A stretch of 64,000 bases of DNA. Origin: an uncultured Lachnospiraceae bacterium (lineage in GTDB: Bacteria > Bacillota > Clostridia > Lachnospirales > Lachnospiraceae). The position numbers were made by a program, and so were the translations under genes. Positions 10,098-58,309 of the stretch are shown in pieces; positions within the stretch are counted from its first letter, which is position 1; every line of letters begins with the position of its first letter. Under the pieces are notes generated by a model. The model ran no database searches. It saw only the letters and a program-made list of their open reading frames with translations, and was not told the DNA's origin. The DNA lies in NCBI GenBank assembly GCA_949484645.1, contig CASYOT010000002.1, positions 66,912-130,911 of the forward strand, given 5' to 3'.

Positions 10098-10766
10098 TTA
10101 CCTCCAAGCCGATTTATTTTTATTGCGTATGATTTTATTAATATCTTCCTGTCTGCCAATGACAATCAGGTTTTCCCCGTTTTGGAAGACATAATCTGCG
10201 TTCGGCATGATTTTTGTCTGGTCGTCGACTTTTACCCCGATAATGCTTAAGTGGTATTTTGTGCGGAAATTTACTTCAAGAATCGTTTTGCCGATCCATT
10301 CTTTTAGCGGAGAAATTTCACATATGGAATATCCGTCCGTCAGGTTAAAATAATCCAGAATACTGTCTGAGCTTAACTGGACGGCAAGTTTTTCTGCGAT
10401 GTCCCGATCCGGAAAGATCACTTTGTCCGCTCCGTTACGCAACAGGAATTTGGCGTACAAGTCCCGGTTTGCTTTGCTGACCACCCGTTTGGCTCCTAAG
10501 TCTTTTAATTGGCTTGTGATTTCAAGGCTGTCTTGAAAAGAATCCCCGATACATACGACGCAGATGTCGAAATTCGAAACGCCAAGGCTTTCAAGCACTT
10601 TTGCATTTGCGCAGTCGCCTATTTTTGCGCTTGTGACATAAGGAAGCAGGTCTTCTAACTGTTCTTCGCATTTATCTACAATCATAATCTCATTATTTAA
10701 TTTTGATAAATTCATACATAAATGAGAGCCGAAATGGCCTGTCCCGATAATTAATATGGATTTCAT
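10098..10766 (-). CDS. ktrA: K+ uptake system regulatory subunit KtrA/TrkA (TrkA-N + TrkA-C)
   Basis: MKSILIIGTGHFGSHL Rossmann NAD-binding motif. Length 222 aa. Immediately downstream of the TrkH-family gene. Confidence 0.85.
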   Translation of the reverse strand: MKSILIIGTGHFGSHLCMNLSKLNNEIMIVDKCEEQLEDLLPYVTSAKIGDCANAKVLESLGVSNFDICVVCIGDSFQDSLEITSQLKDLGAKRVVSKANRDLYAKFLLRNGADKVIFPDRDIAEKLAVQLSSDSILDYFNLTDGYSICEISPLKEWIGKTILEVNFRTKYHLSIIGVKVDDQTKIMPNADYVFQNGENLIVIGRQEDINKIIRNKNKSAWR

Positions 10767-10794
10767 AATGGTTCCTCCTGAAACTAAAATTTGG

Positions 10795-12138
10795 TCAGCC
10801 GACGTTTATTTTTTCAGCGGGCTGCATAATATGCGCGATTTTCTTTTTGTCTGTAAAGGACATGGCAAAAGATAAGCTTCCGACACGGCCTAAATACATC
10901 AGCAAGATAAGGATTAGCAGGGCGGGCGTTTGAAGCTGTGTCGTCAGTCCGGCGGACATGCCGACTGTCCCGATTGCAGAAAACACTTCCAGCAAAACGT
11001 CTATGCCGTTTAAGTTTTGCAGCGCGCAGATAGCAATCGCGGATAGTGTGGCAAGCGTTAAGTTTGTACAAAAAATAGCGGAAGATTTTCGGAGCGCATC
11101 GTCTTCAATGCGTCTGCCAAATACATTATAGCCGACGGAACGCGTCAGGTTTGCTTTGATGTAGATAAAAAGCGCGACAACGGAAGTGACTTTAACCCCG
11201 CCTGCCGTAGATCCGGAGCCTCCGCCGATAAACATTAGGACAATCGTAAGCAGTTTTCCGGCTTGCGTCATGTCGCTTACTTCAATCGAGTTAAATCCCG
11301 CAGTCCTTGGCGTTACGGCGCAGAACATGGAATTTAACAGTTTTTCCGTCTGTGTCATGTTGGCAAACAGATTGTTGCGTTCCATAAAATAAAAAGCGGC
11401 TGCGCCGCAAAAAAGCAGCGCCGCAGTAGCGGTAAGGACAATTTTAGTATGCAGGGAGTAATGGCGGAACTTTAGCCTGTGTTCATATAAATCGTTCCAG
11501 ACATAGAAACCTATGCCGCCAATTATGATTAAGAGCATAATTGTAATCATTACGACTGGATTGCTGTGATAGCCAGTCAGGGACGAGAAGGGGGAATATT
11601 TTCCCATTAAGTCAAACCCTGCGTTGCAAAATGCGGAAACGGAGTGGAAAATACCATAGTAAATTCCGGCCGCGACTCCGGTTTTTGGAATAAAACACAA
11701 AGAAAGTATGACAGCTCCGGTTAGTTCAAACAGGAGCGTTCCTATAAGGATGCGTTTCGTCAGACGCACTAAGCCCCTTAGTTCAATGACATTAAAACTT
11801 TCCCGTAACAGACCCCGTTCGCTAAGGCCGATTTTCTTTCGGAGAATCATAGAGACGGAGATGCCAAGAGTGATAAATCCAAGACCGCCGATCTGGATTA
11901 AGAATAAAAGCACAACCTGCCCAAATATCGTCCAGTGCGTAAAGGTGTCTGCGACAATCAGGCCGGTTACGCATGTGGCGCTGGCAGATGTGAATAACGC
12001 TGTTAAAAAGGAGGTGTGTTCTCCGGATTTTGTTGCGAACGGAAGCATTAAAAGGAAGGCGCCTATAAAAATGATAATGCAAAAGCCGCCTGCGATAAGC
12101 TGCATTCCTGACAGCCGTTTGGCTATTTTTGATAACAT
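10795..12138 (-). CDS. ktrB: K+ transporter membrane subunit KtrB/TrkH family
   Basis: 447 aa polytopic membrane protein with repeated selectivity-filter-like GxG motifs (IGGLGF, MSAGLT, TAGF, IGGGSGSTAGG). Confidence 0.85.
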   Translation of the reverse strand: MLSKIAKRLSGMQLIAGGFCIIIFIGAFLLMLPFATKSGEHTSFLTALFTSASATCVTGLIVADTFTHWTIFGQVVLLFLIQIGGLGFITLGISVSMILRKKIGLSERGLLRESFNVIELRGLVRLTKRILIGTLLFELTGAVILSLCFIPKTGVAAGIYYGIFHSVSAFCNAGFDLMGKYSPFSSLTGYHSNPVVMITIMLLIIIGGIGFYVWNDLYEHRLKFRHYSLHTKIVLTATAALLFCGAAAFYFMERNNLFANMTQTEKLLNSMFCAVTPRTAGFNSIEVSDMTQAGKLLTIVLMFIGGGSGSTAGGVKVTSVVALFIYIKANLTRSVGYNVFGRRIEDDALRKSSAIFCTNLTLATLSAIAICALQNLNGIDVLLEVFSAIGTVGMSAGLTTQLQTPALLILILLMYLGRVGSLSFAMSFTDKKKIAHIMQPAEKINVG

Positions 12139-12236
12139 GATATTTTTTCCTTTCTGAAAGGCTTCCCCTTATTTTAGGAATAGTTTTTGCATCTGTCAAG
12201 ACGGATGCCGTTTAAAGTTTCATTTGGCAGAGGATT

Positions 12237-12983
12237 TTACTGTTTATGGGATTGATTGTGCTTTTTATCGTGGTGGTGGCAGCGGGTTTCTTTGGAAGGA
12301 GCGTTTTCGCCGTCCGTGGTTTCGTTCTGCTCATGCTCGCAGGTAAGCTCATGGATTGTGGAAATATCCATATGTTTACAGTCTTCAGGCGTGACGCCGC
12401 TGTCATATTGGCTTAATTGGAGGTATGCGTAATACTTGCCGAAAGAAAGTCCGTAACTGTGCGCGTCCTCTACGATTTCTATATCAGCGCGGATATGCTG
12501 GCATTCATGGCTTAGGTGGTTCGAACAGGCTTTCATTCTCCGGTTTAAGCCCCGTTGCGTTTTTTCCTCAGCAACCGTTAAAACAAGCTCCGCTTCATCA
12601 GATAAAAAGGTTTGCATCGTTTCATTTTCAATAATTTCATGGACAGCCGTTGTGTCGCGTTTTCCTTTTAAGGAAAGAGTTTCTAATATTTTTCTGCCTT
12701 CCGCATTGAATGCCGTTGCAGAAACGACGCGGCCAAAGCGGTTTAAGGAAAGTTCTATAGAGGGATTGACGTCAATGCTGATATATGAGACGGGCGTTTT
12801 TGTCCATGAATATCCTGTAATTCCGATGGCCAGAAGCAGCGCAGCGCAGGCGGTGGCAAATGTCTTTTGGAAACGCATCCGCGGTTTTTTCTGATTGTTT
12901 TGTGTAATAAATTGCTTCGTTGATTCAATTAAATGTTCGTCTGCTTTTATGTGGTCAAATGCGTCGCGTATGTCATTCGCCAA
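12237..12983 (-). CDS. Membrane-anchored anti-sigma factor with a Cys/His-rich extracytoplasmic C-terminal tail
   Basis: The gene overlaps the upstream ECF sigma gene. It has a cytoplasmic N-terminus, one transmembrane segment (TFATACAALLLAIGITGYSW) and an extracytoplasmic domain. The tail contains CSNHLSHECQH...CKHMD...HELTCEHEQ...RCHHHDKKHNQSHKQ. Confidence 0.65.
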   Translation of the reverse strand: MANDIRDAFDHIKADEHLIESTKQFITQNNQKKPRMRFQKTFATACAALLLAIGITGYSWTKTPVSYISIDVNPSIELSLNRFGRVVSATAFNAEGRKILETLSLKGKRDTTAVHEIIENETMQTFLSDEAELVLTVAEEKTQRGLNRRMKACSNHLSHECQHIRADIEIVEDAHSYGLSFGKYYAYLQLSQYDSGVTPEDCKHMDISTIHELTCEHEQNETTDGENAPSKETRCHHHDKKHNQSHKQ

Positions 12984-13500
12984 TTCCTTCCCCTCCCGTC
13001 TTTTTTTGATAATATTTTGCCGCTGAAGGGCAGTCTTTTAAATAGTCTTTTAACAGCCGCCGCCCTCTTGATAATAAGGAATAAACCGTATTTTCTTTTT
13101 TTCCAAGAATGGCTCCGATTTCAGCGGCAGAATATCCTTCATAATAATGCAGGTAGATCGGATTTTTGTATTTTTCCGGCAAAGAAAGCACCGCTTCTAA
13201 TACGTCCCTAAAATCTTCCGGAATCTCGGCTTCCAGTTCCGTTATCGTTTCCAAAGGAAGGGTATTCCGGCGGAAAAAGTTTCTCAAGTCGTCTTTGCAG
13301 GCGTTAATGGTAACACGCAGAAGCCATGCTTTTTCATGTTCACTGTCACGAAAAGGCGCATCACACATCATATATTTCATAAATACTTTTTGGAACACAT
13401 CTTCCGTGTCTTCACGGTTTTTCAGATAATAAAAGCAGATACGCCGCACCATGTCCGCATAGGTTTCCACTGCGCGGCATACCTCCTGTTCGCTTCGCAT
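12973..13500 (-). CDS. ECF-type RNA polymerase sigma factor (sigma-70 family regions 2 and 4)
   Basis: 175 aa. Region 2 residues (DTEDVFQKVFMKYMM) and region 4 HTH (SAAEIGAILGKKENTVYSLLSRGRRLLK). GGAAGGTGGGG Shine-Dalgarno sequence before the ATG at 13500. Confidence 0.85.
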   Translation of the reverse strand: MRSEQEVCRAVETYADMVRRICFYYLKNREDTEDVFQKVFMKYMMCDAPFRDSEHEKAWLLRVTINACKDDLRNFFRRNTLPLETITELEAEIPEDFRDVLEAVLSLPEKYKNPIYLHYYEGYSAAEIGAILGKKENTVYSLLSRGRRLLKDYLKDCPSAAKYYQKKTGGEGIGE

Positions 13501-13648
13501 CGTAATCCCCACCTTCCCGCAAACGGTAAAAAAAGAAACCCTCTCTTGCCATAGTATACCTTTTTACAGTAAATCACAACAAAAAAGGCAATGATGGAAA
13601 AATTTAATTCCATACACCGCCTTTTACGCTAAAATAGCTGTCTGAAAC

Positions 13649-14011
13649 TTAATGATGTTTAGAAGTATGATGTTTTTTCCCATTTGCATGGGTGGTGTGA
13701 TGTTTTGTACAGTATTTTTTGCAGTTTGTTTTCTTTTTGTGGTATTTATCGTGGTATTCGCAGTATGCGCCTTTCTTTTTGGTCGGTCCATAGTATTTAC
13801 AGATTGCGCCCTGTTTATGGTTTTTCTCATGGTAAGCGCAGTAAGTCCCCTGCTGGCTGTTGTTAGACGTGTTAGAATAGCAGCCGGAATTGTTGTGGTG
13901 ATTTCCGCCCGAATGGCCATGCGCCCAAACAGGCGCTGCAAAACTGCCTGAGAGCAAAACTGACGCGAATAAAACGAGAACTGCTTTTTTTAGGTTCCGA
14001 AAAGATTTCAT
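13649..14011 (-). CDS. Secreted His/Cys/Lys-rich low-complexity repeat protein (putative metal-binding)
   Basis: Signal peptide MKSFRNLKKAVLVLFASVLLSGSFAAPVWA. Mature part has repeats of the form G-x-YC-x-YH-x-K-x-HKxx (TYCAYHEKNHKQG / AICKYYGPTKKKG / AYCEYHDKYHKKK / TNCKKYCTKHH) and ends HHTSKHH. AAGGAGGAG Shine-Dalgarno sequence. Confidence 0.6.
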   Translation of the reverse strand: MKSFRNLKKAVLVLFASVLLSGSFAAPVWAHGHSGGNHHNNSGCYSNTSNNSQQGTYCAYHEKNHKQGAICKYYGPTKKKGAYCEYHDKYHKKKTNCKKYCTKHHTTHANGKKHHTSKHH

Positions 14012-14197
14012 TTGTCTCCTCCTTTTGATTTTGTTGCTGTTTTTTTCCTCTACATAAGTAATACGATTGAAATAGAAAAATCCTTGCAAAAAAAAAACCA
14101 ATCGCTATTAAAATTTTGGAATCTGCGCTATACTGAATAAAAGAACTCTCCTTTTCAAATACTGATAGAAAAAAACAGACCAGAGGGAAAGGGGATT

Positions 14198-14968
14198 TTG
14201 GAGATGGAAAAAAAACGCGCGCTTTTCTTTGTGCCGGCAATGATATTAGCCGCAGCGGCCGGATGTGGGACAAAGACGCCGGATAATGCCGGTGTAGATA
14301 CAAACCGTCCGCAGAATACGCAGGCGGTTCATGGGACGGAGACGGAAATTGCAGTAGATACGGAACATACAAGCCAGCTTCAGTTAGGCAATGCAGTCGA
14401 GATACCGGAAGGATTTGAAGGGCGGATTGCGGAAGAAGAAGCGCATCGGGAATTAGAGCAGGCGATCGCCAAATATTGCGGCATAAGGGAAGAAGATTTT
14501 GAAAAGACGCGTTATTATTATAATTATGTTGACTTAAATGAAGATGGGCAAAATGAAATACTTGCTTTTGTGTTCGGGCAGGACGTCCCGCAGATACAGG
14601 GAAATGTTTTGTTATGGCTAAATGTGGAACGGGGAAGCCTATCAAAAGATTCTGTGCGCCAGTCGTTTGAACAGGTTGGAACTCCGGTGTATATCAGCAG
14701 CCAGAAGACAGAGGGCTACAGGAATTTAATTTTAACGGAAAATACGCAGACAGTGTCTGTATTAAAAGAACAGGGGACAGAGCCGGTTTCCATCGGACAG
14801 AGCTATCGGGAGCTTACTTATACCGGAGAGAAGTATCAGGAGTTGGAAGAAGGGGCCACATTAGACGATATCCGTGATAAAAAAGGGACGGCGATATTCA
14901 CAAATCCTATAGAAAGCGGTTTGGCAAATGAAAATTGCCATATTTTGGGAGAAGCTATTCGAAAATAA
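14198..14968 (+). CDS. Lipoprotein, function unknown
   Basis: Lipobox LAAAAGC after a hydrophobic N-terminus. Length 256 aa. Confidence 0.6.
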   Translation: MEMEKKRALFFVPAMILAAAAGCGTKTPDNAGVDTNRPQNTQAVHGTETEIAVDTEHTSQLQLGNAVEIPEGFEGRIAEEEAHRELEQAIAKYCGIREEDFEKTRYYYNYVDLNEDGQNEILAFVFGQDVPQIQGNVLLWLNVERGSLSKDSVRQSFEQVGTPVYISSQKTEGYRNLILTENTQTVSVLKEQGTEPVSIGQSYRELTYTGEKYQELEEGATLDDIRDKKGTAIFTNPIESGLANENCHILGEAIRK

Positions 14969-14987
14969 GAAAAAAGGGGGACTTATT

Positions 14988-16478
14988 ATGTTGAGACAGT
15001 ATGAGACACGCAGGTATCAAATGCCGCAAGAGGAGATTAAGGCGTTAGTCAGGGAGAAACGGGCGGAGCTTGTCCGCCAGCAGCTTTTAATTAAAGAGCA
15101 GGCGCTTCCGGTTTTTGTGTTAGTGGAAGGCTGGGGAGCTTCCGGCAAAGGCACCTTAATTGGCAATTTAATCGAAGATTTAGATCCGAGGTTTTTCCAT
15201 GTGAAAAAAATGAATGCGCCGACTGAGGAAGCGCAGCGCCGTCCGTTTTTATGGCGGTACATGGAAGTTATGCCGGCGGCAGGGCAGTTTCTGTTTCTAA
15301 ATTCCGGCTGGTTAAGTGAGACGGCGGACGCAATGGCGGACAGCAAGATAGACGACGTTTCTTTAGAGCAGAGGTTAAGGCAAATCCGTATTTTTGAGCG
15401 TCAGTTAAAAGACAACGGTTATCTTGTTGTAAAATTGTTTTTACAGATTCCGCCGGAGGAACAAAAACAGCGGATAGAGAAATTGCTGGGGGATAAGGAT
15501 ACAAAATGGCGGGTGTCTGAAAAAGATCTTCTTCAAGTAAAGAAGCGGGAAAAGTACGAGAAGCTCTACGACAGGCTGTTAGAAGCGACGAATACCGGAT
15601 ATGCGCCGTGGAACATTGTCGATGCCACAGACAAAAAGCAGGCTCTGCTTCAGGCGCTTCATATTTTAACGATTCAAATTAATCAGGCGGAAGTAAACAG
15701 AAAGGCGCTTCCGGAAATCTTGTACAAAGACTATCCGCTGCTTAAAATGCCAAAGCTTTCCGAAGTTCCGTTGAACCAGAGTTTGTCGAGGGAAGAATAT
15801 GAGGTCCAGTTAAAGGAACTGCAAAAGAAGCTGAAGAAGCTTCATAATAAGATTTACCGCAAAAAGATCCCTGTGATCATTGCTTACGAAGGCTGGGACG
15901 CCGCTGGAAAAGGCGGGAATATTAAGCGGCTGGCAAGCGCGCTCGACCCAAGGGGGTTTGAAGTTTATCCAATCGCATCTCCGGAACCGCATGAAAAATC
16001 ACGTCACTACCTCTGGCGGTTTTACCACAGGCTCCCTAAAAGCGGGCATATTGCAATTTTTGACCGCACATGGTACGGCAGGGTGATGGTAGAGCGGATT
16101 GAAGGGTTTTGTTCGGAAAATGATTGGAAACGGGCGTATAATGAAATCAATGAATTTGAAAAAGAATTGACGGACTGGGGTGCGGCAGTCATTAAATTCT
16201 GGGTGCATATAGATAAAGAAACACAGCTTGCCCGTTTTACTGAACGGCAGAATACGCCGGAAAAGCAGTGGAAAATCACAGACGAGGACTGGCGGAACCG
16301 TGAGAAATGGGACGTATATGAAACAGCCATTGATGAAATGATTGAGAAAACTTCAACGGAAAATGCGCCATGGTTTATTATTCAGTCAAATAATAAATAT
16401 TATGCAAGGCTTCAGGCAATTCAGATTGTAATTGATGAAATTGAGAAGCGGCTGGCTTTGCCGCCGCGTAAAAAATAA
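14988..16478 (+). CDS. Two-domain polyphosphate kinase 2 family protein (polyphosphate:AMP/nucleotide phosphotransferase-like)
   Basis: Two PPK2 domains, each with a Walker A loop (EGWGASGKGT and EGWDAAGKGG). AAGGGGGA Shine-Dalgarno sequence before the ATG at 14988. Confidence 0.8.
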   Translation: MLRQYETRRYQMPQEEIKALVREKRAELVRQQLLIKEQALPVFVLVEGWGASGKGTLIGNLIEDLDPRFFHVKKMNAPTEEAQRRPFLWRYMEVMPAAGQFLFLNSGWLSETADAMADSKIDDVSLEQRLRQIRIFERQLKDNGYLVVKLFLQIPPEEQKQRIEKLLGDKDTKWRVSEKDLLQVKKREKYEKLYDRLLEATNTGYAPWNIVDATDKKQALLQALHILTIQINQAEVNRKALPEILYKDYPLLKMPKLSEVPLNQSLSREEYEVQLKELQKKLKKLHNKIYRKKIPVIIAYEGWDAAGKGGNIKRLASALDPRGFEVYPIASPEPHEKSRHYLWRFYHRLPKSGHIAIFDRTWYGRVMVERIEGFCSENDWKRAYNEINEFEKELTDWGAAVIKFWVHIDKETQLARFTERQNTPEKQWKITDEDWRNREKWDVYETAIDEMIEKTSTENAPWFIIQSNNKYYARLQAIQIVIDEIEKRLALPPRKK

Positions 16479-44856: not shown

Positions 44857-47800
44857 ATGAAAGAAACGGGCAGTAAAAGAAAAATACGTTCTTTTATAGC
44901 GGGAACATTGGCTTTTCTGCTGATGGTTACGACTGCATTGTCAGGCTTTCCACCCATTCAGGCGCAAGCGGCTGCGAGGAAAATCTGGCATCGTGTAGAA
45001 ACAGGAAGCGGCAATGGGAATGGGCATGCGTATTCAGATGCATCGACGAATCCGGCAGCCGTATTATTGCATCAGGATAAGATTGAATGGGAGTCGACAT
45101 TTAACGTTACTTATGAAAAACAGGGTGATGCGCCTAATAAAGCGCGGCTGGGGTTTTTCTATTCTTACTTAAATGATTCGAATTGGCTGTACGTAGGATC
45201 GAATCCGGATGGGAGCTGGTATTATGAATATAACTTAGGTGGAAGTACAGGTTATCCGTCATTAGAAGGGCTTCCAGCAATTACGGATACCAGTCGCGCA
45301 GAGATTTCTGTATCGGTAGCCCGCGAGGCATTGACGGTGACAGTAAACGGCGTGAAAGTTCAGGTAGCAAATAAAGATGTTTTTGAAGGTTTAAAGGAGG
45401 CTATCGGCAATGAAGGAAGACCGGGGTTCCGCGCTGGAAAAAATGGGACTGAGCATACGTTCTTCCGTTTTACAGATGCGAAAACCAAAGGCGCTCCCCT
45501 TAGTGATGACGGCTGGAGTTTTTTGGCTGACTGCGAAGGGCAGGTACATAATCAGGAAACGATTCCAGTATATTCCGTGACAGGCGCCGTGAAAGATGGG
45601 AACACTCCGGTTGAAAATGCGGTTGTGCGCGTTGGGGAGGAAAGCGTGAGGACGGCAGCGGACGGTTCGTTTTCTCTTTCGGTGGAACAGGGAACGTATG
45701 TGGTGTCTGTATCTGCATCAGGCTATCAGGCATATTCCCAAGAGAATGTGGAAATAAATGCGGATAAAGATCTGGGAGAGATTGCGCTTACCAAAAAGGA
45801 TGCTGTTAATTACGAGTATTTTATTAGCAATGGAACAATAAAAGCTGCAGTCAGCAACGAATTTCCGCAGGTGTTCCAATATGAATTGACTTTAGGTGAA
45901 GACGGCGCAAAGAAAATATTTGCCGGACAGGAAACCAAATTAACGGAAATGAGAATTGGGGCCTATAATCCTGCTTATGGAGAGGATAAATCGGTTCCGC
46001 AGGTCAATTTAAAGGACATAGAGCCAACCTTAAAAAGTTTTGAAAAAGAAGAGGATCATGCAGTTTATGTGATGAATCTAAAAGACGCAGAAGCGCAGAT
46101 TGATTTTGACATGACAGTGAAGATTTCAGTTTCCGAGAATGATTTAATCTGGGAAGTGACAAATATCACAAAGAATAGCGGCTGTGTGAAAATTAATACG
46201 ATCGACGTGCCGGAATTAAATCTTGTGACGATTACAGACTTACAGGTGGATACCCAGTTTATGGGCGCGGTAATTTCCGGCGATACAAATGCGATCGGCG
46301 ACAGGGAGATTACCTTTGAAGATGGGTTTGTTGCGAACAATTCCGGCGGTTACGCATATGGTTTTTTGTCTGCTGACGGGATTAGCGCAGGCGTATGGAG
46401 TAATTCTGAGATGGTAAGTGACAACCGTCTTGTGCGTAATAACGGCGTGGACAGTATGTCTCTGACAAGCGCGGCATGGTATTATGATTATAATAATGAC
46501 GCGACTTTCAGTTATACAGATTATACGGACGCTACAAAAAATAAAACCCTGACATTTTCGGATTATGATTCTGTAGCGGGCGTAGCGGGCGGCGTTCCTA
46601 TTAGTGAACTGCCTTGCGCAAAGGTATGTTTTGCCGCTGATGAGAATGAGGATAGCGTTGTAGACTGGCAGGACGGCGCGATTGCATACAGGGATATTAT
46701 GAATAACCCGTATGGATCGGAAAACACAAAAGATCTTGTGAATTACCGTATTTCCATGAACTTTAACAGTCAGGCGACAAATCCATATTTAAAGACGGCT
46801 GACAATATTAAAAAAGTATATCTTGCAACGGACGGGCTTCCGCAGGCAGTTATGATGAAAGGATACGGAAGTGAAGGCCATGATTCTGCGAACTCCGAGT
46901 ATGGATATATTGCGGATCGTCTTGGCGGTTTGGAAGAATTGAAGCAGTTGAATACGATTGCGCATAATTATAATGTCCAGATGGGTATTCATATTAATGC
47001 GCAGGAATGTTATCCGGAAGCGCAGACATTTTCTAATGATTTGGTAAATGGCGTTAATTCCCGCGGCTGGGGCTGGTTAGATCAGTCTTATAACATTAAC
47101 CGCGCATATGACTTGGGCAGCGGCCTTCGTTACAAACGTTTATTACAGCTTTATGATCAGTTAAATGACACTTCGCTCTATGCAAATAAATGGCCGGGCG
47201 TTGCTGGCCAAGGTGAAGACGAGACTGTGGCGGACGCAGAGACGATTGCGCGCACAGTTGCAGAGAAGAAAAAGACAACGACGGAAAATCTTGATTTTAT
47301 GTATCTTGACGTATGGTACGGGGCTTCATGGGAGACGCGTAAAATTGCGCAGCAGTTTAACAGTCTGGGCTGGAGATTTTCTACAGAGTTTGGCGATGAA
47401 GGGGAATATGACTCGACATGGCAGCACTGGGCAACAGAAGGCCATTATGGCGGTTCCGCGAAGAAAGGGTTAAACAGTGATGTGATCCGTTTTATCCGGA
47501 ACCATCAGAAAGATTCTTTTGTATTGAACTATCCAAGCTATGGCGGCACAGCGGATAATCCTCTGCTCGGCGGATTTGACCTTGGCGGATTTGAAGGCTG
47601 GGGCGGCAGTAATGACAGTTTTAACGACTATATCATTAAGACATTTTTAGTAAACCTTCCAACTAAATTTTTACAGCATTATAAAGTGTATAAATGGGAA
47701 AATTATGAAGATGGCGGCTCCCCTGTTGGAAACCATGAAAAAGAAATTACGTTAGTAAATGATGATAAAACAGAGAAAGTGGTTGTAACGAGAAATGAAG

Positions 47801-50800
47801 ATCAGATTACAAGCGTAAGCGGCAACCAGAGTTTGGATTATGTAGAGCGGACAATCAAATTAAACGGCAAAAAAGTGCTGGATAATGCAACTTATCTGCT
47901 TCCATGGACAGATTGGGAAACGGATGAAGAAAAATTATACCACTTCAACTATGAAGGCGGCGCAACTACATGGGAATTGCAGGATAGCTGGAAAAACCTT
48001 GGGAGTGTTACGGTTTACGCTTTGACAGATGTAGGAAGAACAGCTAAGAAGACAGTTCCGGTTACAAATGGCAGCATTACGTTAGATGCGGATGCAAAGA
48101 TGCCGTATATTGTTGTAAAAGATGAAACCTCAGAAAAGAAGGAAATCAAAGAGCCATGGAGTGAGCATGCGCATGTAGTGGATTCCGGATTTAATAATTA
48201 CAGCGGCGTAAACGTTGATTTAGGTGAGGAAGGCCCAGAGTGCCCAGAATGTAAGAAAGAAGATAAAACTACAAAAACAAAGTATAATTATTATATGGGA
48301 TCAAAATTCGTGTGTCCGGTATGCAAATACGAGATGGGCGCAGATGCTGCGGATAAGTTCAAATATGAAGAACAGGGAAATCCTTTAGATAAAGAAATTT
48401 GGAGCGGTGACATAAACGATGTGAAGGTCGTGCGCATCGGATCTACGGGAAATAAATATCTTCAGATGGGCAGTGAGACAGAAACACAATCCGTATCTAC
48501 AACAATCTCAGACTTAGAGCCGGGGACGGATTATGTAGCTCAGGTTTATGTGGAAAATAAGAGTGACGCAAAAGCATGGATTAAGGTAACGGGAGGAAGC
48601 GAGGACGTTTCTAACTATACACTGAGATCTCTTGCGGAAAATTATGTACAGTGTGACGCACATAGCAGGAGAGCGGTATCTGGAAGCAGGATGCAAATTA
48701 TGCAGGTTCCTTTTACTGCGGACTCTTCCACAGCGACATTGACTTTAGAACGTGAGGCAGGCGAGGATATCACATATTTTGACGATATTCGTATCGTAGA
48801 TAAAAAAATCAATAATATTCAGGCGGACGGGAGCTTTAAACAGGATTTTGAATCTGTTGTATCGGGAATGTATCCATTTGTATTAGGACCGGCGCAGGGA
48901 GTTACAGACCATGTAACTCATTTGTCTGAGCTTCATGCTCCATATACACAGTCAGGCTGGGGCGGCAAAGAATCCTTAGATGACGTTTTGGAAGGAAAAT
49001 GGTCGTTAAAACATCATGGAAACAATACAGGAATCATTTACCGGACGATTCCGCAGAATCTCCATTTTGAAGCAGGTCAGACGTATAATATCAGTTTTGA
49101 CTATCAGTCAGGTCAAAGAGGTCAATATTATATTGTCATTGGCGAAGGCGACGAAGTGATTCAGACTTTAGATTATATGGAGAATACAGCAGAGAATCCG
49201 TTAGGCGGGCCATCTGAAACAAAGACTTATGAATTTAGGATGGTAGGCGCTGACAGTGGGCAGTCATGGTTTGGTTTAGCAAGCGCGGCGGCATCTCTGT
49301 CAAAAGATGAAAATGATAATATTAAAGCATATGGTTTAGTGGATTTTGTTTTAGATAATCTGGAAGTGAAGAAAGTTGGCGTAAAGATTTCCGCTTCCGC
49401 TTCGACTGTAACGTCAGCCAAAGATCCGATTACATTGACAGCAGAGTTTTCCGATGAATTAGATGAATCTAATCTGGTTACATGGACTTCTTCTGATGAA
49501 AACGTTGTAAAGGTCGTTCCGGACCCGGAAGACAGCAAGATATGTCACGCATATTTTGTAGGTTTTGGGAATGCGACTATTACGATGAGAACTATGGTAG
49601 GAGTGCAAGAAATTGAATTGCCGTGGGCGGTTTCTTTCCCAGAGATTTTTGAACTTCCATCAGAGGAGCAGAAGAAGGCAGAATGGGCAGGGGTTTATGC
49701 AAATACAGAATCTGCGACTGATAATGACACTAAGGAGAAAGCGATTGATGGAGAGTCAGGCACTCAATGGCATTCGCAGTGGGCGTCGCCTGCATTTGTC
49801 GTATCGGAAACGAATCCGGCTCTTTTAACAGTAAAAATTGCAGATGGAGACAATATTTCAAATTACAACAGAGTTACGATACAACAGAGAACTGGTAATG
49901 TTAATGGTTTAGTTAAAAAATATAAATGTGTCGTTGGGGATGAGTTTGACGAAACAACTCATACTGTTTCAGGGAATGTATATACTACGGATGTTATTAC
50001 TGCGAAAAAGACAGGTCAGGGAGAAAGAGAAGTTTGTGTGCTTCCGGCAGGAACTGCTGGTAAGTATTTACAGATTCAGGTACTTGAAGGTGAAGGAACT
50101 TTCGCATCGATTGCAGAACTGGAATTGGATAAAGCAGGCACAAATAATACAGATGAAGAACAAGGTTATTTTGAAGAGAATGGCAGTAGCTGGTCAAATA
50201 AAATAACAGAAGCTCTGGAAGCAACGCTGGAAAATGCAGACGCTGTAGAGAAGGCCGGACGAGGAGATTATTCAGAAGAAAGCTGGGCTGTGTTTGAAGC
50301 GGCTCTAAACGCTGCAAAGGATCGACCGGCAGACGCTACGCCACAGCAATTATTAGAATTGCAGCAGGATCTTGTTTTGGCGATCTCTAATTTAACGGTT
50401 TCATTGGATAAGGCAAGAACGGAATTTGAAAAGGTCTTTGATGAAGCAAAGAACATATATAATGCGGGCCAAGGCAATTATACAGATGCGAGCTGGGAGT
50501 CATTTAAGAAGGTTTATGAAGATGTAGATGTAATAAAAGATTCCCAAGATCCAAAAGTTTTGGTAAAAGGCAGGCAGATGTTAGAAAAAGCTTTGGAAGG
50601 ATTGAAAGAAAAAACTCCAGAACAGATTGAATTTGAGCAGGCGCAGCAAGAATTGAAACAATCTATGGACTCTGCATCAAAGAAGATTAGCGAGGGTCAG
50701 GGAAATTATACGACGACAAGCTGGAAGAAATTAGTCAAAGCATACGAGGATGCAAAAGAAGGGAAAAATTCTGAGGATAAAGAAACGTTGAAAGCATTGA

Positions 50801-51852
50801 CAAAAGCTTTGGACGATGCGATGAAAGGTTTAGCAGAGAAATCTGATGACCTGATAGAAGCAGAAGAAGCTTTGGCAAAGACAATCGAATCTGCAGGAGA
50901 AAAAATTGAAGCAGGTCAGGGAGAGTATACAAACGCAAGTTGGAAAGCATTCCAAGATGCCTACAATGCAGCCTTGAAAGGGAATGAGTCAGATGACAAG
51001 GCAGAAGTGCAGAAGCTGGATAATGCTTTAAAGAAAGCAATGGCAGGCTTAATTACAAATGCCCAGCAGGCAGAAAACGATAAAGCGGCGGCAATCCAAT
51101 CTGCAAAGAATGCCTTGCAGAATGAAATAAACGCTTCCAAAACTAAATATAGCGCAGGAGCTAAGAAATATACATCTGCAACATGGACTCCATTTAAAAA
51201 AGCTTACGATGCTGCAGTTGCAGGTAAAAATTCAACTGATGTAAACAAGTTGAAGAAGCTAAGAACTGATCTATATAACGCAAGGATAAAATTAAAAATT
51301 CAACCGCCGGCATCGTCCTCTGGTACAGGATCTACACAAACGAAGAAATTAAGCAAGTCAGATTATACAGATGTAAAAGACATTCGTTATACAGTAATCG
51401 ATCCGGAGAAATGTACAGTTGAAGCGGCAGGCTTAAAAAAGAATATGAAAAAAGCCAACATTCTGTCGACAGTAGAAGTGAAGGGCATAGAATGTAAAGT
51501 AACTCAAATTAAAGCCAACGGCTTTAAAAAGTACACGAAATTAACGACTGTCACAATTGGCGCAAATGTTGAGAAGATTGGAAAAGCCGCTTTTTCAGGA
51601 TGTAAATCCATCACAAAGCTTACAATCGGCGCAAATGTGAAATCAATAGATGCGCAGAGTTTCTCAGGTTGTAAAAAAATTAAGAATATTGTGATTAAGT
51701 CAAAGAAACTTACTTCGATTGGGAAGAAAGCATTTAAAGGCGTCACTGCAAAAGCAAAAGTGAAACTTCCGAAACTGAAGGGCAGCGCCGCTAAAAAATT
51801 AAAACAAAAGTTGATAAAAGCAGGCGTGAATAAGAAAGCAAAAATAAAGTAA
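44857..51852 (+). CDS. Giant secreted multi-domain glycoside hydrolase, GH101-like (putative endo-alpha-N-acetylgalactosaminidase) with CarboxypepD_reg-like, CBM32/F5-8 type C, Big_2, multiple FIVAR repeats, BspA-type leucine-rich repeats and a Lys-rich C-terminal tail
   Basis: Signal peptide. Central region contains YLDVWYG ... FSTEFGDEGE, consistent with a GH101 nucleophile and acid/base. Galactose-binding-like motif KAIDGESGTQWHSQW. Six or seven repeats GQGNYTxxSWxxFxxAYxxA (FIVAR). Leucine-rich repeats TIGANVEKIGKAAFSGCKSI. Length 2331 aa. Confidence 0.55.
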   Translation: MKETGSKRKIRSFIAGTLAFLLMVTTALSGFPPIQAQAAARKIWHRVETGSGNGNGHAYSDASTNPAAVLLHQDKIEWESTFNVTYEKQGDAPNKARLGFFYSYLNDSNWLYVGSNPDGSWYYEYNLGGSTGYPSLEGLPAITDTSRAEISVSVAREALTVTVNGVKVQVANKDVFEGLKEAIGNEGRPGFRAGKNGTEHTFFRFTDAKTKGAPLSDDGWSFLADCEGQVHNQETIPVYSVTGAVKDGNTPVENAVVRVGEESVRTAADGSFSLSVEQGTYVVSVSASGYQAYSQENVEINADKDLGEIALTKKDAVNYEYFISNGTIKAAVSNEFPQVFQYELTLGEDGAKKIFAGQETKLTEMRIGAYNPAYGEDKSVPQVNLKDIEPTLKSFEKEEDHAVYVMNLKDAEAQIDFDMTVKISVSENDLIWEVTNITKNSGCVKINTIDVPELNLVTITDLQVDTQFMGAVISGDTNAIGDREITFEDGFVANNSGGYAYGFLSADGISAGVWSNSEMVSDNRLVRNNGVDSMSLTSAAWYYDYNNDATFSYTDYTDATKNKTLTFSDYDSVAGVAGGVPISELPCAKVCFAADENEDSVVDWQDGAIAYRDIMNNPYGSENTKDLVNYRISMNFNSQATNPYLKTADNIKKVYLATDGLPQAVMMKGYGSEGHDSANSEYGYIADRLGGLEELKQLNTIAHNYNVQMGIHINAQECYPEAQTFSNDLVNGVNSRGWGWLDQSYNINRAYDLGSGLRYKRLLQLYDQLNDTSLYANKWPGVAGQGEDETVADAETIARTVAEKKKTTTENLDFMYLDVWYGASWETRKIAQQFNSLGWRFSTEFGDEGEYDSTWQHWATEGHYGGSAKKGLNSDVIRFIRNHQKDSFVLNYPSYGGTADNPLLGGFDLGGFEGWGGSNDSFNDYIIKTFLVNLPTKFLQHYKVYKWENYEDGGSPVGNHEKEITLVNDDKTEKVVVTRNEDQITSVSGNQSLDYVERTIKLNGKKVLDNATYLLPWTDWETDEEKLYHFNYEGGATTWELQDSWKNLGSVTVYALTDVGRTAKKTVPVTNGSITLDADAKMPYIVVKDETSEKKEIKEPWSEHAHVVDSGFNNYSGVNVDLGEEGPECPECKKEDKTTKTKYNYYMGSKFVCPVCKYEMGADAADKFKYEEQGNPLDKEIWSGDINDVKVVRIGSTGNKYLQMGSETETQSVSTTISDLEPGTDYVAQVYVENKSDAKAWIKVTGGSEDVSNYTLRSLAENYVQCDAHSRRAVSGSRMQIMQVPFTADSSTATLTLEREAGEDITYFDDIRIVDKKINNIQADGSFKQDFESVVSGMYPFVLGPAQGVTDHVTHLSELHAPYTQSGWGGKESLDDVLEGKWSLKHHGNNTGIIYRTIPQNLHFEAGQTYNISFDYQSGQRGQYYIVIGEGDEVIQTLDYMENTAENPLGGPSETKTYEFRMVGADSGQSWFGLASAAASLSKDENDNIKAYGLVDFVLDNLEVKKVGVKISASASTVTSAKDPITLTAEFSDELDESNLVTWTSSDENVVKVVPDPEDSKICHAYFVGFGNATITMRTMVGVQEIELPWAVSFPEIFELPSEEQKKAEWAGVYANTESATDNDTKEKAIDGESGTQWHSQWASPAFVVSETNPALLTVKIADGDNISNYNRVTIQQRTGNVNGLVKKYKCVVGDEFDETTHTVSGNVYTTDVITAKKTGQGEREVCVLPAGTAGKYLQIQVLEGEGTFASIAELELDKAGTNNTDEEQGYFEENGSSWSNKITEALEATLENADAVEKAGRGDYSEESWAVFEAALNAAKDRPADATPQQLLELQQDLVLAISNLTVSLDKARTEFEKVFDEAKNIYNAGQGNYTDASWESFKKVYEDVDVIKDSQDPKVLVKGRQMLEKALEGLKEKTPEQIEFEQAQQELKQSMDSASKKISEGQGNYTTTSWKKLVKAYEDAKEGKNSEDKETLKALTKALDDAMKGLAEKSDDLIEAEEALAKTIESAGEKIEAGQGEYTNASWKAFQDAYNAALKGNESDDKAEVQKLDNALKKAMAGLITNAQQAENDKAAAIQSAKNALQNEINASKTKYSAGAKKYTSATWTPFKKAYDAAVAGKNSTDVNKLKKLRTDLYNARIKLKIQPPASSSGTGSTQTKKLSKSDYTDVKDIRYTVIDPEKCTVEAAGLKKNMKKANILSTVEVKGIECKVTQIKANGFKKYTKLTTVTIGANVEKIGKAAFSGCKSITKLTIGANVKSIDAQSFSGCKKIKNIVIKSKKLTSIGKKAFKGVTAKAKVKLPKLKGSAAKKLKQKLIKAGVNKKAKIK

Positions 51853-54171: not shown

Positions 54172-54310
54172 GAAACCGGCTGAATGTCTGGAGGCCGTAA
54201 ATCTGAAAAAACTATTAAAATTCCTTAATTTCATTTTCGTGGAAGTGAATTTGTGATAAAATACAAGCGTTTCTTAGGAGAAAGAAAACAGCGTTGCGAT
54301 GGAGGATGAG

Positions 54311-57300: not shown

Positions 57301-58309
57301 TATGCGGCTTGGTTTGACGGGAGCGCAGATTTATGGAGATATTTCTGACAGGCTGACAACGGATAAAACGGCGGTTACGCTGACAGTAGACGACACTGAC
57401 ATGGACGTGAAAATAGTCGATGAAACGAATCTGCTGACGAAAGAAAACCTGATGGATATGGAATTTGAAACGCAGAAGACGGACGACGATGGCAAAACTG
57501 TGACGGAAACGCACAAGCTGAGTGAATTTGCGACGCTGGAGTATGGTAACAGCGTAGCGGGGATAAACCGCGCAAACGGACAAAGGCAGATGAGCGTGAC
57601 TGCGGAGACAAAAGAGGGGTACAATACTACGATTTTGTCAAGGGAAGTGGAAGAACTGCTGGCAGAGTATGAATTGCCGGAAGGCTATAGCGTAGAATTT
57701 GGCGGGGAAACGTCAAATACAAATGATATGATGAACCAGATGTCAAAGCTTCTGCTTTTAGGCTTCCTTCTGATTTATCTTGTCATGGTGGCGCAGTTTC
57801 AAAGCCTTCTGTCTCCATTTATCGTTATTTTTACGGTTCCGCTGGCATTTACGGGCGGGCTGCTTGCTATGCTGTTTACGGGCGAGCAGATGTCTTTAAT
57901 TACGCTGATGGGATTTTTGGTGCTGATGGGGACGGTTGTAAATAACGGGATTGTGTTTGTGGATTATACGAACCAGCTTCGCATAGGAGGAATGGAGCGA
58001 AAAGATGCTCTGGCAGCGACTGGGAAAACGCGTATGCGTCCCATTTTAATGACGGCGTTTACGACTATTCTGGCCATGCTTGCAATGGTGTTCAGCCAAG
58101 ATACGGCAAGTGAGCTTGGCAGGGGAATGGCGCTTGTCGTAGCGGGCGGCTTGTTCTATGCAACGTTTATGACGATGTTTATCGTTCCGGTGATGTACGA
58201 TATTCTTTACCGCAAAGAAGTAATCGTCGTAGACGTTGGGGACGATTCTATGGACGATGCGCCGGACGACGCCGCGGAATTTATTGAACAGATGGAGCGT
58301 GGGAACTAG
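54311..58309 (+). CDS. RND-family efflux permease (AcrB/HAE1-like) with a ~280-aa coiled-coil insertion in the first periplasmic loop
   Basis: AcrB-like N-terminus (TYPGASPEKVEESVTKPME). Twelve transmembrane segments in two 6-TM bundles. Residues ~190-480 are heptad-rich coiled coil (SEAQSELSEAENSLADAKSKINKQEQDL...). GGAGGA Shine-Dalgarno sequence before the ATG at 54311. Confidence 0.8.
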   Translation: MIKYSVKKPFTVLVAVIIVLVIGLVSLTGMKTDLLPDMSMPYMMVITTYPGASPEKVEESVTKPMEGALGTINGVEDVTSSSSENYSMVMLEFEEDTSMDSAMVKVSSAINQIESALPETCGAPNILEISMDMMATMYASVSYEGKDIYELSGFTEEVVIPYFERQAGVASISEIGIVEKSVEVRLNQEKIDKINDQILVKTNDKLSEAQSELSEAENSLADAKSKINKQEQDLSNQQNSTTTELADATLKLNEAVASRAAYESQLTSLKASKSALEGEKKAYKENKIESTYNSINDMFAQLSAAVAGISAQLGEASPLDASAMPADIKDAIDNPDKLNYFKTAVETLAGMPNSQIDKGMVRQAKELDKKTLKQLYDIVNVRLPQIETELANLEVEIKVAEEVLKQVETQMASIDEAYKQAEQGKISAAAGFGSGGAQIAAAKTAMEEAQEELENANKTYQDSVAEARKNANINQMLTLEALSGMIYAQNFSMPAGYIDDENEKQWLLKVGENYTSAEELEKMTLCEIDGIGDVHLNDVADITTIDNAGETYAKVNQDAGVILSIFKGSTAGTSDVSEACLNAIEELKEDYPKLNITPLVNQGEYISMLIQSIVSSMVIGALLAIFILAVFLMDIRPTIVVAFSIPFSVLTAIVIMYFAGISINMMSLSGLSLAVGMLVDNSIVVIENIYRLRYRGLSSPRSAVQGAKQVAGAIIASTLTTICVFFPMVFTTGMVRDLLLPFALTITFALTASLAVALTVVPTMGAAMLRKAKPKQHRIFDKIQEGYAAALKFCLRFKIVPLGISVGLLAICIAAVMKMGIVLIPDMGSDQISVTVTIPEEDTKETAYQKADDVMEAILGIEGVGYVGAMDGSSSAGLMGGMTGGSSDNFSNFSYFVLPAEEYNSKSQVEGICDAILEHTKEFECEVAVSNSMMGEMDQMLGSGLQLDIGGSDLDQLLLVSEEIMEMLEGVEGFSNISNGQEEADEEIHLNIDKDASMRLGLTGAQIYGDISDRLTTDKTAVTLTVDDTDMDVKIVDETNLLTKENLMDMEFETQKTDDDGKTVTETHKLSEFATLEYGNSVAGINRANGQRQMSVTAETKEGYNTTILSREVEELLAEYELPEGYSVEFGGETSNTNDMMNQMSKLLLLGFLLIYLVMVAQFQSLLSPFIVIFTVPLAFTGGLLAMLFTGEQMSLITLMGFLVLMGTVVNNGIVFVDYTNQLRIGGMERKDALAATGKTRMRPILMTAFTTILAMLAMVFSQDTASELGRGMALVVAGGLFYATFMTMFIVPVMYDILYRKEVIVVDVGDDSMDDAPDDAAEFIEQMERGN

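Follow-up and report, generated by a model that had tools for sequence, protein, structure and literature searches.

A three-gene module of gut Lachnospiraceae comprising an ECF sigma factor, a SEAL-domain anti-sigma factor and a small secreted protein with a similar histidine-rich tip: a candidate metal-responsive switch

The stretch of DNA analyzed here, in the following referred to as the window, comprises 64,000 nucleotides of an uncultured Lachnospiraceae bacterium. On its minus strand three open reading frames were confirmed, encoding a small secreted protein of 120 aa, an ECF sigma factor of 175 aa and an anti-sigma factor of 248 aa, all of which are present and co-directional as described in a first-pass annotation of this sequence. 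The features of the locus are as follows.

14061..14088, minus strand: candidate ECF-type promoter TGCAAGGATTTTTCTATTTCAATCGTAT with a -35-like TGCAAGG, a 16-nt spacer and a -10-like CGTAT
13649..14011, minus strand: small His/Cys/Lys-rich secreted protein, open reading frame of 120 aa
13922..14011, minus strand: predicted signal peptide of the small protein, aa 1-30, ending in PVWA/HGH
13670..13774, minus strand: conserved core of the small protein, aa 80-114, YCxYHxxxHx5CxxYCxxHxxxHxNGxxH
13577..13625, minus strand: terminator-like hairpin with downstream U-run, separating the small gene from the sigma gene
12973..13500, minus strand: ECF (group 4) sigma factor, 175 aa, with its real start at the ATG at 13500
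12237..12983, minus strand: anti-sigma factor, 248 aa, single pass
12879..12983, minus strand: cytoplasmic N-terminal segment of the anti-sigma factor, aa 1-35, AF2 helices 4-11 and 16-31, no Cys
12798..12878, minus strand: transmembrane helix of the anti-sigma factor, aa 36-62, AF2 helix
12318..12797, minus strand: extracytoplasmic SEAL (RsgI_M) domain of the anti-sigma factor, aa 63-222
12762..12767, minus strand: predicted autocleavage site between N73 and P74
12240..12317, minus strand: disordered acidic linker and His-rich tip, aa 223-248, pLDDT 47-63
12240..12281, minus strand: His-rich tip CHHHDKKHNQSHKQ

The small gene carries AAAGGAGG in front of its ATG start. A longer form of 150 aa from a TTG at 14101 was rejected, since this codon lies upstream of the promoter and is thus not the real start. 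The mature protein of 90 aa contains 15 His, 16 Lys and 6 Cys and has a pI of 9.6; at the window background of 1.5% His, the probability of finding at least 15 His in 90 residues is 7e-12. As annotated at first pass it ends in HHTSKHH, the His tip, but the description of a protein made almost entirely of repeats was overstated, as the two copies of G-x-Y-C-x-Y-H-x-K-x-H-K are preceded by a G/N/S/H spacer of about 25 aa. AF2 models the mature protein with a mean pLDDT of 58 and the core alone with 74-82, placing conserved i/i+4 His and Cys pairs of the core in short beta-hairpins. Searches of Pfam and NCBIfam assigned the window protein to no family and a Foldseek search of the PDB with the AF2 model returned no match. 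Queried with the window protein alone, a word-indexed search of proteins yielded three matches only; with a profile of 19 class A sequences, to which the window protein belongs, a family of 59 clusters was reached. In 53 of these 59 members HxH directly follows the Ala of the predicted signal peptide end (H-G-H after PVWA in the window), and the predicted mature sequence of class A would thereby have an ATCUN-like N-terminus, ATCUN proteins being defined by a His at position 3 behind a free N-terminus, next to a histatin-like H/K/Y composition. It had been pointed out that homologs lacking metal-binding residues, or lacking a linked sigma/anti-sigma pair, would speak against a metal-related module. 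Homologs of the first kind were not found, and linkage of the small-protein homologs to the pair is close to universal: of four members looked up for their neighborhood three lie adjacent to it and the fourth retains the promoter (in an unlinked class A gene the motif is kept 75 nt upstream).

The assignment of the second gene to the ECF sigma factors was borne out by profile searches, giving Pfam Sigma70_r2 (3e-11) and Sigma70_r4_2 (5e-15) as well as NCBIfam TIGR02937 sigma70-ECF with 77 bits versus a cutoff of 43. The protein contains regions 2 and 4 only, within the size of about 170-200 aa of ECF group 4, and the 175-aa form is also the one found in public collections. Its stop overlaps the TTG start of the anti-sigma gene by 11 nt, providing the cognate anti-sigma gene expected for an ECF sigma factor. 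A sigma-70 promoter scan ahead of the sigma gene revealed no qualifying promoter. The terminator-like hairpin located after the small gene and ahead of the sigma gene has an RNA fold of -29.7 kcal/mol (z = -5.2; none of 200 shuffles as stable), implying that the small gene is for the most part transcribed as a separate unit.

A search for ECF-type motifs upstream of position 14011, as had been proposed, resulted in the identification of a conserved candidate promoter directly upstream of the small gene, with an A/T-rich stretch on its 5' side. The motif TGCAAGGATTT-N11-AATCGTATTAT precedes the small gene in the window and in related loci and occurs with fixed spacing in 59 unique instances over 81 loci, one per locus and always preceding either the gene of the small secreted protein or that of the sigma factor. 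In these 59 loci the predicted promoter TGCAAGG-N16-CGTAT has the CGT-containing -10 element of ECF promoters. The 64-kb window holds one exact copy only; a copy with one mismatch at 38916 is within chance expectation. Moreover, scanning metagenomes with the motif alone recovered the order signal-peptide protein, sigma factor and SEAL anti-sigma factor in about 85 of 119 loci. The conserved promoter and the recovery of the gene order by the motif alone therefore argue that the small protein is the product of the sigma factor, i.e., the small secreted gene is its one predicted conserved target. Of the two roles considered at first pass, regulon product or co-sensor, the former is thus strengthened by a promoter found here and at about 60 related loci.

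That the three genes form one module, as originally suggested, is supported by an all-against-all BLAST of the flanking open reading frames of the 81 loci, in which consistent linkage was restricted to the sigma, anti-sigma and small-protein families, with sigma and anti-sigma factor linked in 79-80 of 81 loci. The neighboring genes for TrkH/TrkA, PPK2 and DUF4317 in the window are not consistently linked in the 81 loci and were for this reason placed outside the module. An identity of the small protein as RiPP or bacteriocin precursor was rejected as well: genes for modification, transport or immunity are not linked in the 81 loci and the sole match to an 'ocin' family is sub-threshold and limited to the signal peptide. 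The module was counted in at least 549 stretches of a collection with one genome per species and is also present on high-GC gut contigs; all public records examined for its proteins are labelled hypothetical. We consider the architecture of the three-gene switch as solid.

Across the loci the small proteins are hypervariable and fall into at least four unrelated repeat classes, with repeats of either C/H or D-x-N-x-D-G-x-C-D EF-hand-like type. Common to the unrelated small-protein classes, of which there are six or more, are only the signal peptide, metal-ligand-rich repeats and the His tip; nearly all small proteins are secreted and carry this sensor-like tip at their end, and the bodies range from strongly basic (pI 9.6 in the window) to acidic. 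One class D protein (L058) shows a sub-threshold match to SMBP (E 3e-4, 21 bits versus a cutoff of 29).

The anti-sigma factor shows the organization of an RsgI-type receptor. RsgI_M is its sole Pfam match at E <= 0.1, and the domain lies juxtamembrane and has the SEAL/RsgI_M fold. Around the predicted cleavage site, all 33 homologs compared share SIDVN73/P74S without change, and none of 119 homologs has lost N-P-S. For RsgI, in which this site was defined, experiments on autocleavage between N and P and on dependence on RasP have been reported with positive outcome (PMC10556640). A disordered extracytoplasmic region follows the SEAL domain as in RsgI-type proteins, and the tails of the homologs are of low complexity and variable length. 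On the other side of the membrane, the basic KKPRMRFQK precedes the transmembrane helix, and the N-terminal consensus MxNKIxDAFDxIKADxxLKESTKQFL is kept in 33 homologs. Neither RsgI_N nor zf-HC2 was matched in Pfam, and the protein is not a ZAS anti-sigma factor, the signature HxxxCxxC being absent from its Cys-free cytoplasmic residues 1-35. Compared to the RsgI/SigI systems of Bacillus subtilis (RsgI) and Clostridium thermocellum (RsgI1-9), the partner is a 175-aa ECF sigma factor (r2 and r4_2) and not of SigI type, the N-terminal domain comprises only two helices within 35 aa and has no RsgI_N match, a His-rich tip of about 12 residues forms the distal element where the known systems have carbohydrate-binding or PepSY modules, the promoter reads TGCAAGG-N16-CGTAT, and the output is a small secreted His-tipped protein instead of cellulosome or wall-homeostasis genes. 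Hence it is not a SigI/RsgI pair in the strict sense of RsgI_N plus SigI-type sigma factor: the sigma factor has a canonical Sigma70_r4_2 and no SigI model is among its best 25 NCBIfam matches listed.

The first-pass annotation had described a sensor tail with CxH, HxxxCxH and CHHH motifs. These motifs do match the Cys and His residues found (C153, H156, H159, C161, H163, H175, C202, H204, H211, C215, H217, C235, H236-238, H242 and H246); however, most of them (153-217) lie in the folded domain and the free tail covers residues 223-248 only. Residues 153-217 as a separate metal-sensor domain were therefore rejected, because they belong to the SEAL fold. This bears on the analogy to the Ni/Co-responsive CnrYXH of Cupriavidus metallidurans drawn at first pass, according to which the Cys/His-studded ectodomain would be a folded metal sensor releasing the sigma factor allosterically. 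Both systems would control an ECF sigma factor from outside the cytoplasm, in the module possibly by metal, and the short cytoplasmic segment (35 aa, two helices) resembles the class II anti-sigma domain of CnrY, which has 45 aa and two helices (PMC6851896). Moreover, the His-tipped clades show semi-conservation of positions C153-H163 and C202, which the His-less low-GC clade lacks. However, neither a CnrX-type sensor protein nor an efflux operon under control was found in the module or the 81 related loci, the host is Gram-positive, and the ectodomain is an RsgI-type SEAL domain of predicted autoproteolytic activity, implying a proteolytic instead of an allosteric mechanism. The analogy thus fails and a circuit of this kind is regarded as very improbable. 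The SEAL ectodomain rather points to regulated intramembrane proteolysis after ectodomain release than to allosteric metal sensing via a partner.

The distal tail of the anti-sigma factor is conserved in its chemistry; a lack of its conservation among orthologs had been named at first pass as an argument against the metal-responsive module. The window protein has five His in its last 15 residues (chance P = 2e-6), 110 of the 119 homologs have at least three there, and the His content of the anti-sigma homologs is 27.7% in the tail versus 3.6% elsewhere. After removal of redundancy, sensor and product alike bear His tips at 61 loci; sensors without His mostly come with no small gene or with a His-less one, an association with a Fisher p of 0.003 if kinship is ignored. 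Furthermore, one anti-sigma factor (P0036) contains the class C small-protein repeat within its own tail.

A tail type shared by sensor and product and lost together, and a product-like repeat fused into a sensor tail, are features expected if the module senses its product. In the sigma-E pathway of E. coli the signal lies in C-terminal peptides of secreted proteins, and the gene for RseB belongs to the same operon under sigma-E control. By analogy, a third component, i.e., a tail-recognising protease or receptor, might read the His tips, for which anti-sigma factor and product would compete so that the switch gauges the amount of product, or the product might bind the sensor tail via a bridging metal as co-sensor or inhibitor, as RseB binds RseA. 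The module resembles the sigma-E/RseA/RseB/DegS system in the regulated intramembrane proteolysis of a single-pass anti-sigma factor (presumed here from the RsgI precedent), in a secreted protein encoded in the same sigma-controlled locus and in the C-terminal tails of exported proteins as plausible signal. However, the protein families are unrelated, a PDZ protease or other candidate third gene is not linked to the module in the 81 loci, and the predicted autoproteolysis of the SEAL domain makes a site-1 protease dispensable. Altogether, a competition of tails or sensing of the product appears improbable.

We favor a self-contained three-gene signalling loop, in which a pre-cleaved SEAL anti-sigma factor would release the sigma factor and the His-rich product would act as a metal sponge resetting the switch; we assign it a probability of roughly 45%. 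As sequence, homologs and fold show, the ECF sigma factor is held at the membrane by its single-pass anti-sigma factor. Following the RsgI precedent, the ectodomain would be pre-cleaved and stay attached, and removal of its distal part would allow an RseP/RasP-type site-2 protease to cut the membrane stub, freeing the sigma factor. Composition suggests that divalent transition metals (Zn, Ni or Cu) might be bound by the His tips as well as by the C/H core of the small protein and its predicted mature N-terminus HGH, an ATCUN-like X-X-H, and metal loading of the sensor tip, or metal-bridging to His-rich partners, might destabilise or pull off the cleaved ectodomain. The induced product would then lower the free metal outside the membrane and compete with the sensor tip, resulting in a reset, i.e., a negative feedback in which the sensor bears a sample of its own product's chemistry. 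Such a product would resemble the PcoE/SilE/SmbP-type sponges and histatin-like peptides in being small, secreted, largely disordered, His-rich and induced by an envelope sensor. The window protein is nevertheless no member of the SmbP, PcoE or SilE families: it has no Pfam match and no detectable homology to them, contains Cys and is controlled by an ECF sigma factor instead of a two-component system, and its metal binding is suggested by composition. Metal sensing is the best-supported candidate reading of the module.

Several observations speak against metal. The products of loci L100 and L162 contain no His or Cys at all, that of L162 being Gly/Gln/Met-rich, and neither linkage to the module in the 81 loci nor a preceding copy of the promoter was seen for any metal transporter, efflux pump or metalloregulator. 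The Asp-rich repeat classes suggest Ca2+ over transition metals. Known SEAL receptors answer pulling force or wall gaps and not small ligands (PMC10556640, PMC9732909).

Alternatively, the His tip might bind the cell wall, either directly or via cations on anionic wall polymers, and thereby anchor the linker, so that stretch or damage of the wall would pull the pre-cleaved SEAL domain apart; the products would sit in the wall by the same tail, fortifying or modifying it or competing for tether sites. For SEAL/RsgI receptors a role as force sensors has been proposed, with disordered regions extending into the wall or across it (PMC10556640, PMC9732909). In the product of locus L009 exactly the position of the His tip is taken by a PG_binding_1 domain (E 7e-17), an exchange that wall attachment explains no worse than metal binding does, and the highly variable linker length, from about 20 to more than 150 aa among the homologs, would be expected of a spacer; the hypervariable product bodies retaining only the tail are consistent with it, too. 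On the other hand, no precedent was found for poly-His as wall-binding tail, wall binding would not account for the conserved HGH N-terminus and C/H core seen in class A, and the window linker of about 25 residues is short for a Gram-positive wall. We regard such a tethered force sensor as rather unlikely.

A further possibility is based on the titration of His side chains, which occurs near pH 6. Under acidic conditions in the gut the tips would turn into polycations that adhere to anionic polymers of the wall, or they would alter their conformation, tripping the switch; the products would serve to buffer the envelope or to shield it. The only feature conserved in both tips is their enrichment in His, which often alternates with Gly, Arg or Lys instead of following classical metal-site spacings, and the hosts, judged by their record titles, are gut bacteria facing pH swings. 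However, this reading would leave unexplained why Cys residues are conserved, and likewise the HxH behind the signal peptide Ala and the EF-hand-like Asp repeats, and no common charge-based protective role is evident for product bodies ranging from pI 9.6 to acidic. Sensing of pH therefore seems scarcely probable.

ECF sigma/anti-sigma pairs and SEAL-domain anti-sigma factors are known already. In a limited literature search, combining SEAL/RsgI with ECF, histidine-rich or ATCUN, no account of the module was found, in agreement with the first-pass remark that the arrangement was not recognised as a described system. What was not found in the literature searched is the combination of an ECF sigma factor and a SEAL anti-sigma factor bearing a His-tipped disordered tail with a single promoter-defined secreted product bearing the same tip.

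If the loop favored here operates, the module would take SEAL receptors beyond the sensing of force and polymers, a wider conclusion that we draw with considerable reservation. The receptor would carry a short copy of its product's metal-binding tail, and the pre-cleaved anti-sigma factor would gauge extracytoplasmic metal or the occupancy of a His-tail ligand. This would constitute a minimal homeostatic loop of sensor, sigma factor and sponge, widespread in gut Lachnospiraceae and high-GC gut bacteria, whose product is swapped wholesale while signal peptide, ligand-rich repeats and tip are kept. With three genes and one promoter the system is very small and experimentally tractable, and the conserved promoter offers an immediate reporter and a regulon prediction in any genome with the module. 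It lends itself to exploring which signals other than polysaccharides and wall gaps are sensed by SEAL receptors, and it may show how strictly anaerobic gut Firmicutes manage metals, cations or pH outside their membrane.

The three co-directional minus-strand open reading frames described in the first-pass annotation are all present in the window, in the following surroundings:

10098-12138, minus strand: trkH (447 aa) and trkA-like gene (222 aa), potassium uptake, directly downstream of the anti-sigma gene
12171-12199, minus strand: promoter-like site of trkH/trkA, near-consensus TTGACA-17-TAAAAT
12237..12983, minus strand: anti-sigma gene, 248 aa, TTG start
12973..13500, minus strand: ECF sigma gene, 175 aa, Sigma70_r2 and Sigma70_r4_2, passes the NCBIfam ECF model
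13649..14011, minus strand: small-protein gene, 120 aa, ATG behind AAAGGAGG
14198-14968, plus strand: 256-aa protein preceding PPK2, lipoprotein-like N-terminus LAAAAGC, without Pfam match
14928-16478, plus strand: two-domain PPK2 polyphosphate kinase, 516 aa, E 2e-135, divergent from the module
44857-51852, plus strand: very large ORF, 2331 aa, distal part of the window
54299-58309, plus strand: very large ORF, 1336 aa, distal part of the window

The end of the sigma gene, with its stop, and the TTG start of the anti-sigma gene share 11 nt, and the anti-sigma protein has one transmembrane helix (aa 36-62, AlphaFold model). The small protein carries a signal peptide of typical form ending PVWA/HGH (slash, predicted cleavage), and its mature part of 90 residues contains 15 His, 16 Lys and 6 Cys (pI 9.6), a His content far above what chance would give on the 1.5% background of the long ORFs of the window (P = 7e-12). 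It had been described as made almost entirely of repeats; repeats do exist, in only two copies preceded by a G/N/S/H spacer. A 150-aa form starting at the TTG at 14101 was ruled out, since this codon lies upstream of the candidate promoter.

In an all-against-all comparison of flanking ORFs, only the sigma, anti-sigma and small proteins were consistently linked. The adjacency of trkH/trkA is not conserved in the other compared loci, and the trkH/trkA, DUF4317 and PPK2 genes are bystanders. The PPK2 and 256-aa ORFs overlap by approximately 40 nt. The GC skew of the window turns from positive to negative between approximately 19 and 26 kb and drops to about zero again past 60 kb, changes that coincide with minus-strand gene blocks.

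An alignment of the 160-nt regions preceding the small genes in related loci revealed a conserved motif composed of an A/T-rich stretch, TGCAAGGATTT, 11 variable bases and AATCGTATTAT. Judged from its sequence it resembles an ECF promoter, having a -35 element, a CGT-type -10 element and a constant distance of 16 nt from GCAAGG to CGT. In the window, for which a search for ECF-type -35/-10 elements upstream of 14011 had been suggested, the exact motif occurs once, at 14061..14088 on the minus strand, 50 nt before the ATG of the small gene. Among 81 compared loci 59 unique instances were found, one per locus, lying before the small secreted gene and in a minority of loci directly before the sigma gene. 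As an independent test, metagenome contigs were scanned with the motif alone; approximately 85 of 119 matches were followed by a signal-peptide protein (usually His-tipped, i.e., with a His-rich extreme C-terminus), an ECF sigma and an anti-sigma with a SEAL (RsgI_M autoproteolytic) ectodomain, and no transporter or enzyme class recurred downstream of the 119 matches. Moreover, an unlinked small-protein gene of the window's type (P0218 in locus L204), which has no adjoining sigma/anti-sigma pair, still has the motif 75 nt upstream. The small and sigma genes of the window are separated by a strong hairpin followed by a U-run (-29.7 kcal/mol, z = -5.2), suggesting that the small gene is the main transcript from the candidate promoter. 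The earlier suggestion that the small protein is the regulon product is strengthened by the conserved motif and by the same gene order returned in the motif-only scan, and the small protein is the predicted product of the sigma factor. In another locus (L162:7797-8900, plus strand), a well-formed motif with an A/T-rich upstream stretch also lies ahead of the gene for a secreted repeat protein of 333 aa, rich in Gly, Gln and Met; this protein is without a His tip and may represent an additional product class or another regulon member.

The first-pass annotation had proposed a CnrYXH-like or metallochaperone-like circuit with a Cys/His-studded anti-sigma sensor tail. Every one of the motifs was found in the 248-aa protein; the bulk of this supposed tail, from C153 to H217, lies within a folded domain, so that the free tail is TTDGENAPSKETRCHHHDKKHNQSHKQ only. 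The protein gives a Pfam match to RsgI_M (PF23750, E 7e-28) over residues 65-188. In the AlphaFold model (33 homologs as input, mean pLDDT 86), residues 62-222 are well folded and residues 223-248 disordered. The ectodomain is a SEAL domain, RsgI-like rather than CnrY-like, which makes a CnrYXH-like allosteric sensor highly improbable; the sole point in its favor is the short cytoplasmic segment (35 residues, two helices), which is similar to CnrY's class II anti-sigma domain (PMC6851896). The SEAL domain has been shown to self-cleave between N97 and P98 in a conserved beta-hairpin, the fragments remaining associated until the distal one is removed and RasP cuts the membrane stub (Brogan et al., PMC10556640). 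The predicted cleavage motif of the window's protein, SIDVN73/P74S, is invariant across 33 aligned homologs, and N-P-S is kept in every one of the 119 homologs that are 200 aa or longer. RsgI_N gave no match in the 35-residue cytoplasmic segment, which together with the canonical ECF partner indicates a SEAL-type anti-sigma paired with an ECF sigma and not a strict SigI/RsgI pair.

A database search returned 234 anti-sigma homologs, mostly from Lachnospiraceae, and at least 549 encoding stretches were found in a set with a single genome for each species; public records label the module proteins hypothetical. The proposal had been made dependent on conservation of the anti-sigma tail, for which tip and linker behave differently. 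The post-SEAL linker is acidic, of low complexity and varies from approximately 20 to more than 150 residues. The tip is conserved, with at least three His among the last 15 residues in 110 of 119 homologs and a His content of 27.7% there vs. 3.6% in the remainder. Four metagenome contigs (L083, L084, L128 and L136) have a GC content of 51-67%, three of them 59-67%. Each of the four carries the motif, a gene for a secreted, His-tipped protein with Asp repeats, and the genes of an ECF sigma and a SEAL anti-sigma, showing that module and promoter span very different genome backgrounds. In a low-GC clade (L139, L141, L109, L164 and L198; contigs of L139, L141 and L198 31-46% GC) the small gene is absent, and the motif immediately precedes the sigma gene. 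The anti-sigma is mostly longer (351-408 aa; 261-297 aa in L198), with a Lys/Asn/Glu-rich tail without His tip; those ectodomains that were read completely are Cys-free. L198 contains two motif copies.

The proteins behind the motif belong to several unrelated classes:

Class A (the window's), A/HGH...GxYCxYHxxxHx5CxxYCxKHxTxHxNGxxHH, 59 clusters
CGHTDGNHPxDCPNWDG repeats
Class C, D-x-N-x-D-G-x-C-D repeats, EF-hand matches sub-threshold
HHTDG repeats, Cys-free, SmbP match sub-threshold
Gly/Tyr-rich proteins with the Asp repeats

Common to them are a signal peptide, many potential metal-ligating residues and, at the C-terminus, a His-rich tip (e.g., HHGGGHHGGGHH, HHSGGHH, HHTSKHH) of the same kind as that of the anti-sigma. 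At 61 loci of the non-redundant table, sensor tip and product tip both contain three or more His. Sensors without tip His mostly lack the small gene, as in the low-GC clade, or else have a His-less product (L071, L100); the association gives a Fisher p = 0.003, uncorrected for phylogeny. Furthermore, one anti-sigma homolog (P0036, 415 aa) carries two class C repeats in its disordered tail (~320-370) just before the His tip, the sole such case among 120 homologs, and looks like a product-like sequence fused onto the sensor. Such matching tips could reflect an RseB/DegS-like scheme, with either competition for a tail-recognizing partner or co-sensing from tip to tip, which we consider unlikely, or pH sensing via His protonation, which appears slightly less probable still.

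Sequence, model and comparison show the parts, their order, the fold, the cleavage motif, the promoter motif with its target gene and the tips common to sensor and product. For architecture plus product assignment, taken apart from the mechanism, we estimate a probability near 0.9. The preferred metal-sensing model including its feedback is tentative and has somewhat less than an even chance. By analogy to RsgI, the ectodomain would be constitutively self-cleaved yet retained; upon loss of the distal fragment a site-2 protease would free the sigma factor and the small gene would be transcribed. Judged by composition, putative transition-metal ligands are the His tips, the HGH sequence at the mature N-terminus (ATCUN-like X-X-H; A/HxH in 53 of 59 class A clusters) and the Cys/His pairs spaced i/i+4 in the class A core, which AF2 models as short hairpins with modest confidence. 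The anti-sigma tip would report extracytoplasmic metal, and the product would act as a secreted or wall-retained metal sponge, lowering free metal and competing with the tip in a negative feedback. The main weaknesses of this model are that no metal transport genes are linked to the module or lie under the motif and that certain products are without His and Cys. Moreover, no mechanism is known by which a small ligand could displace a SEAL ectodomain. A further weakness is a product with an AHGH start, C/H repeats and an upstream candidate promoter (L009:2951-3397, plus strand), in which a PG_binding_1 peptidoglycan-binding domain (E 7e-17) replaces the His tip while the anti-sigma of this locus retains a strong one (HHGGHHSGHSHH). 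This swap fits wall attachment, as in a wall-tether mechanosensor, a reading that is rather unlikely overall.

By fold and motif the anti-sigma is a member of the SEAL-domain family and the module would work like RsgI, and the sigma factor is a member of the ECF family; the module lacks both defining features of a SigI/RsgI pair (RsgI_N and a SigI partner) and belongs to none of CnrYXH, ZAS, SmbP and PcoE/SilE. Brogan et al. list seven types of domain attached to the disordered regions of RsgI-like proteins, and the word histidine is absent from their text (PMC10556640); no description of the module was found in the literature searched on SEAL, RsgI or ECF systems with histidine-rich or ATCUN features. 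The module is widespread in gut bacteria and has a predicted regulon of one gene and a ready-made reporter. Moreover, the tail mimicry between sensor and product makes the question of what SEAL receptors sense directly testable.
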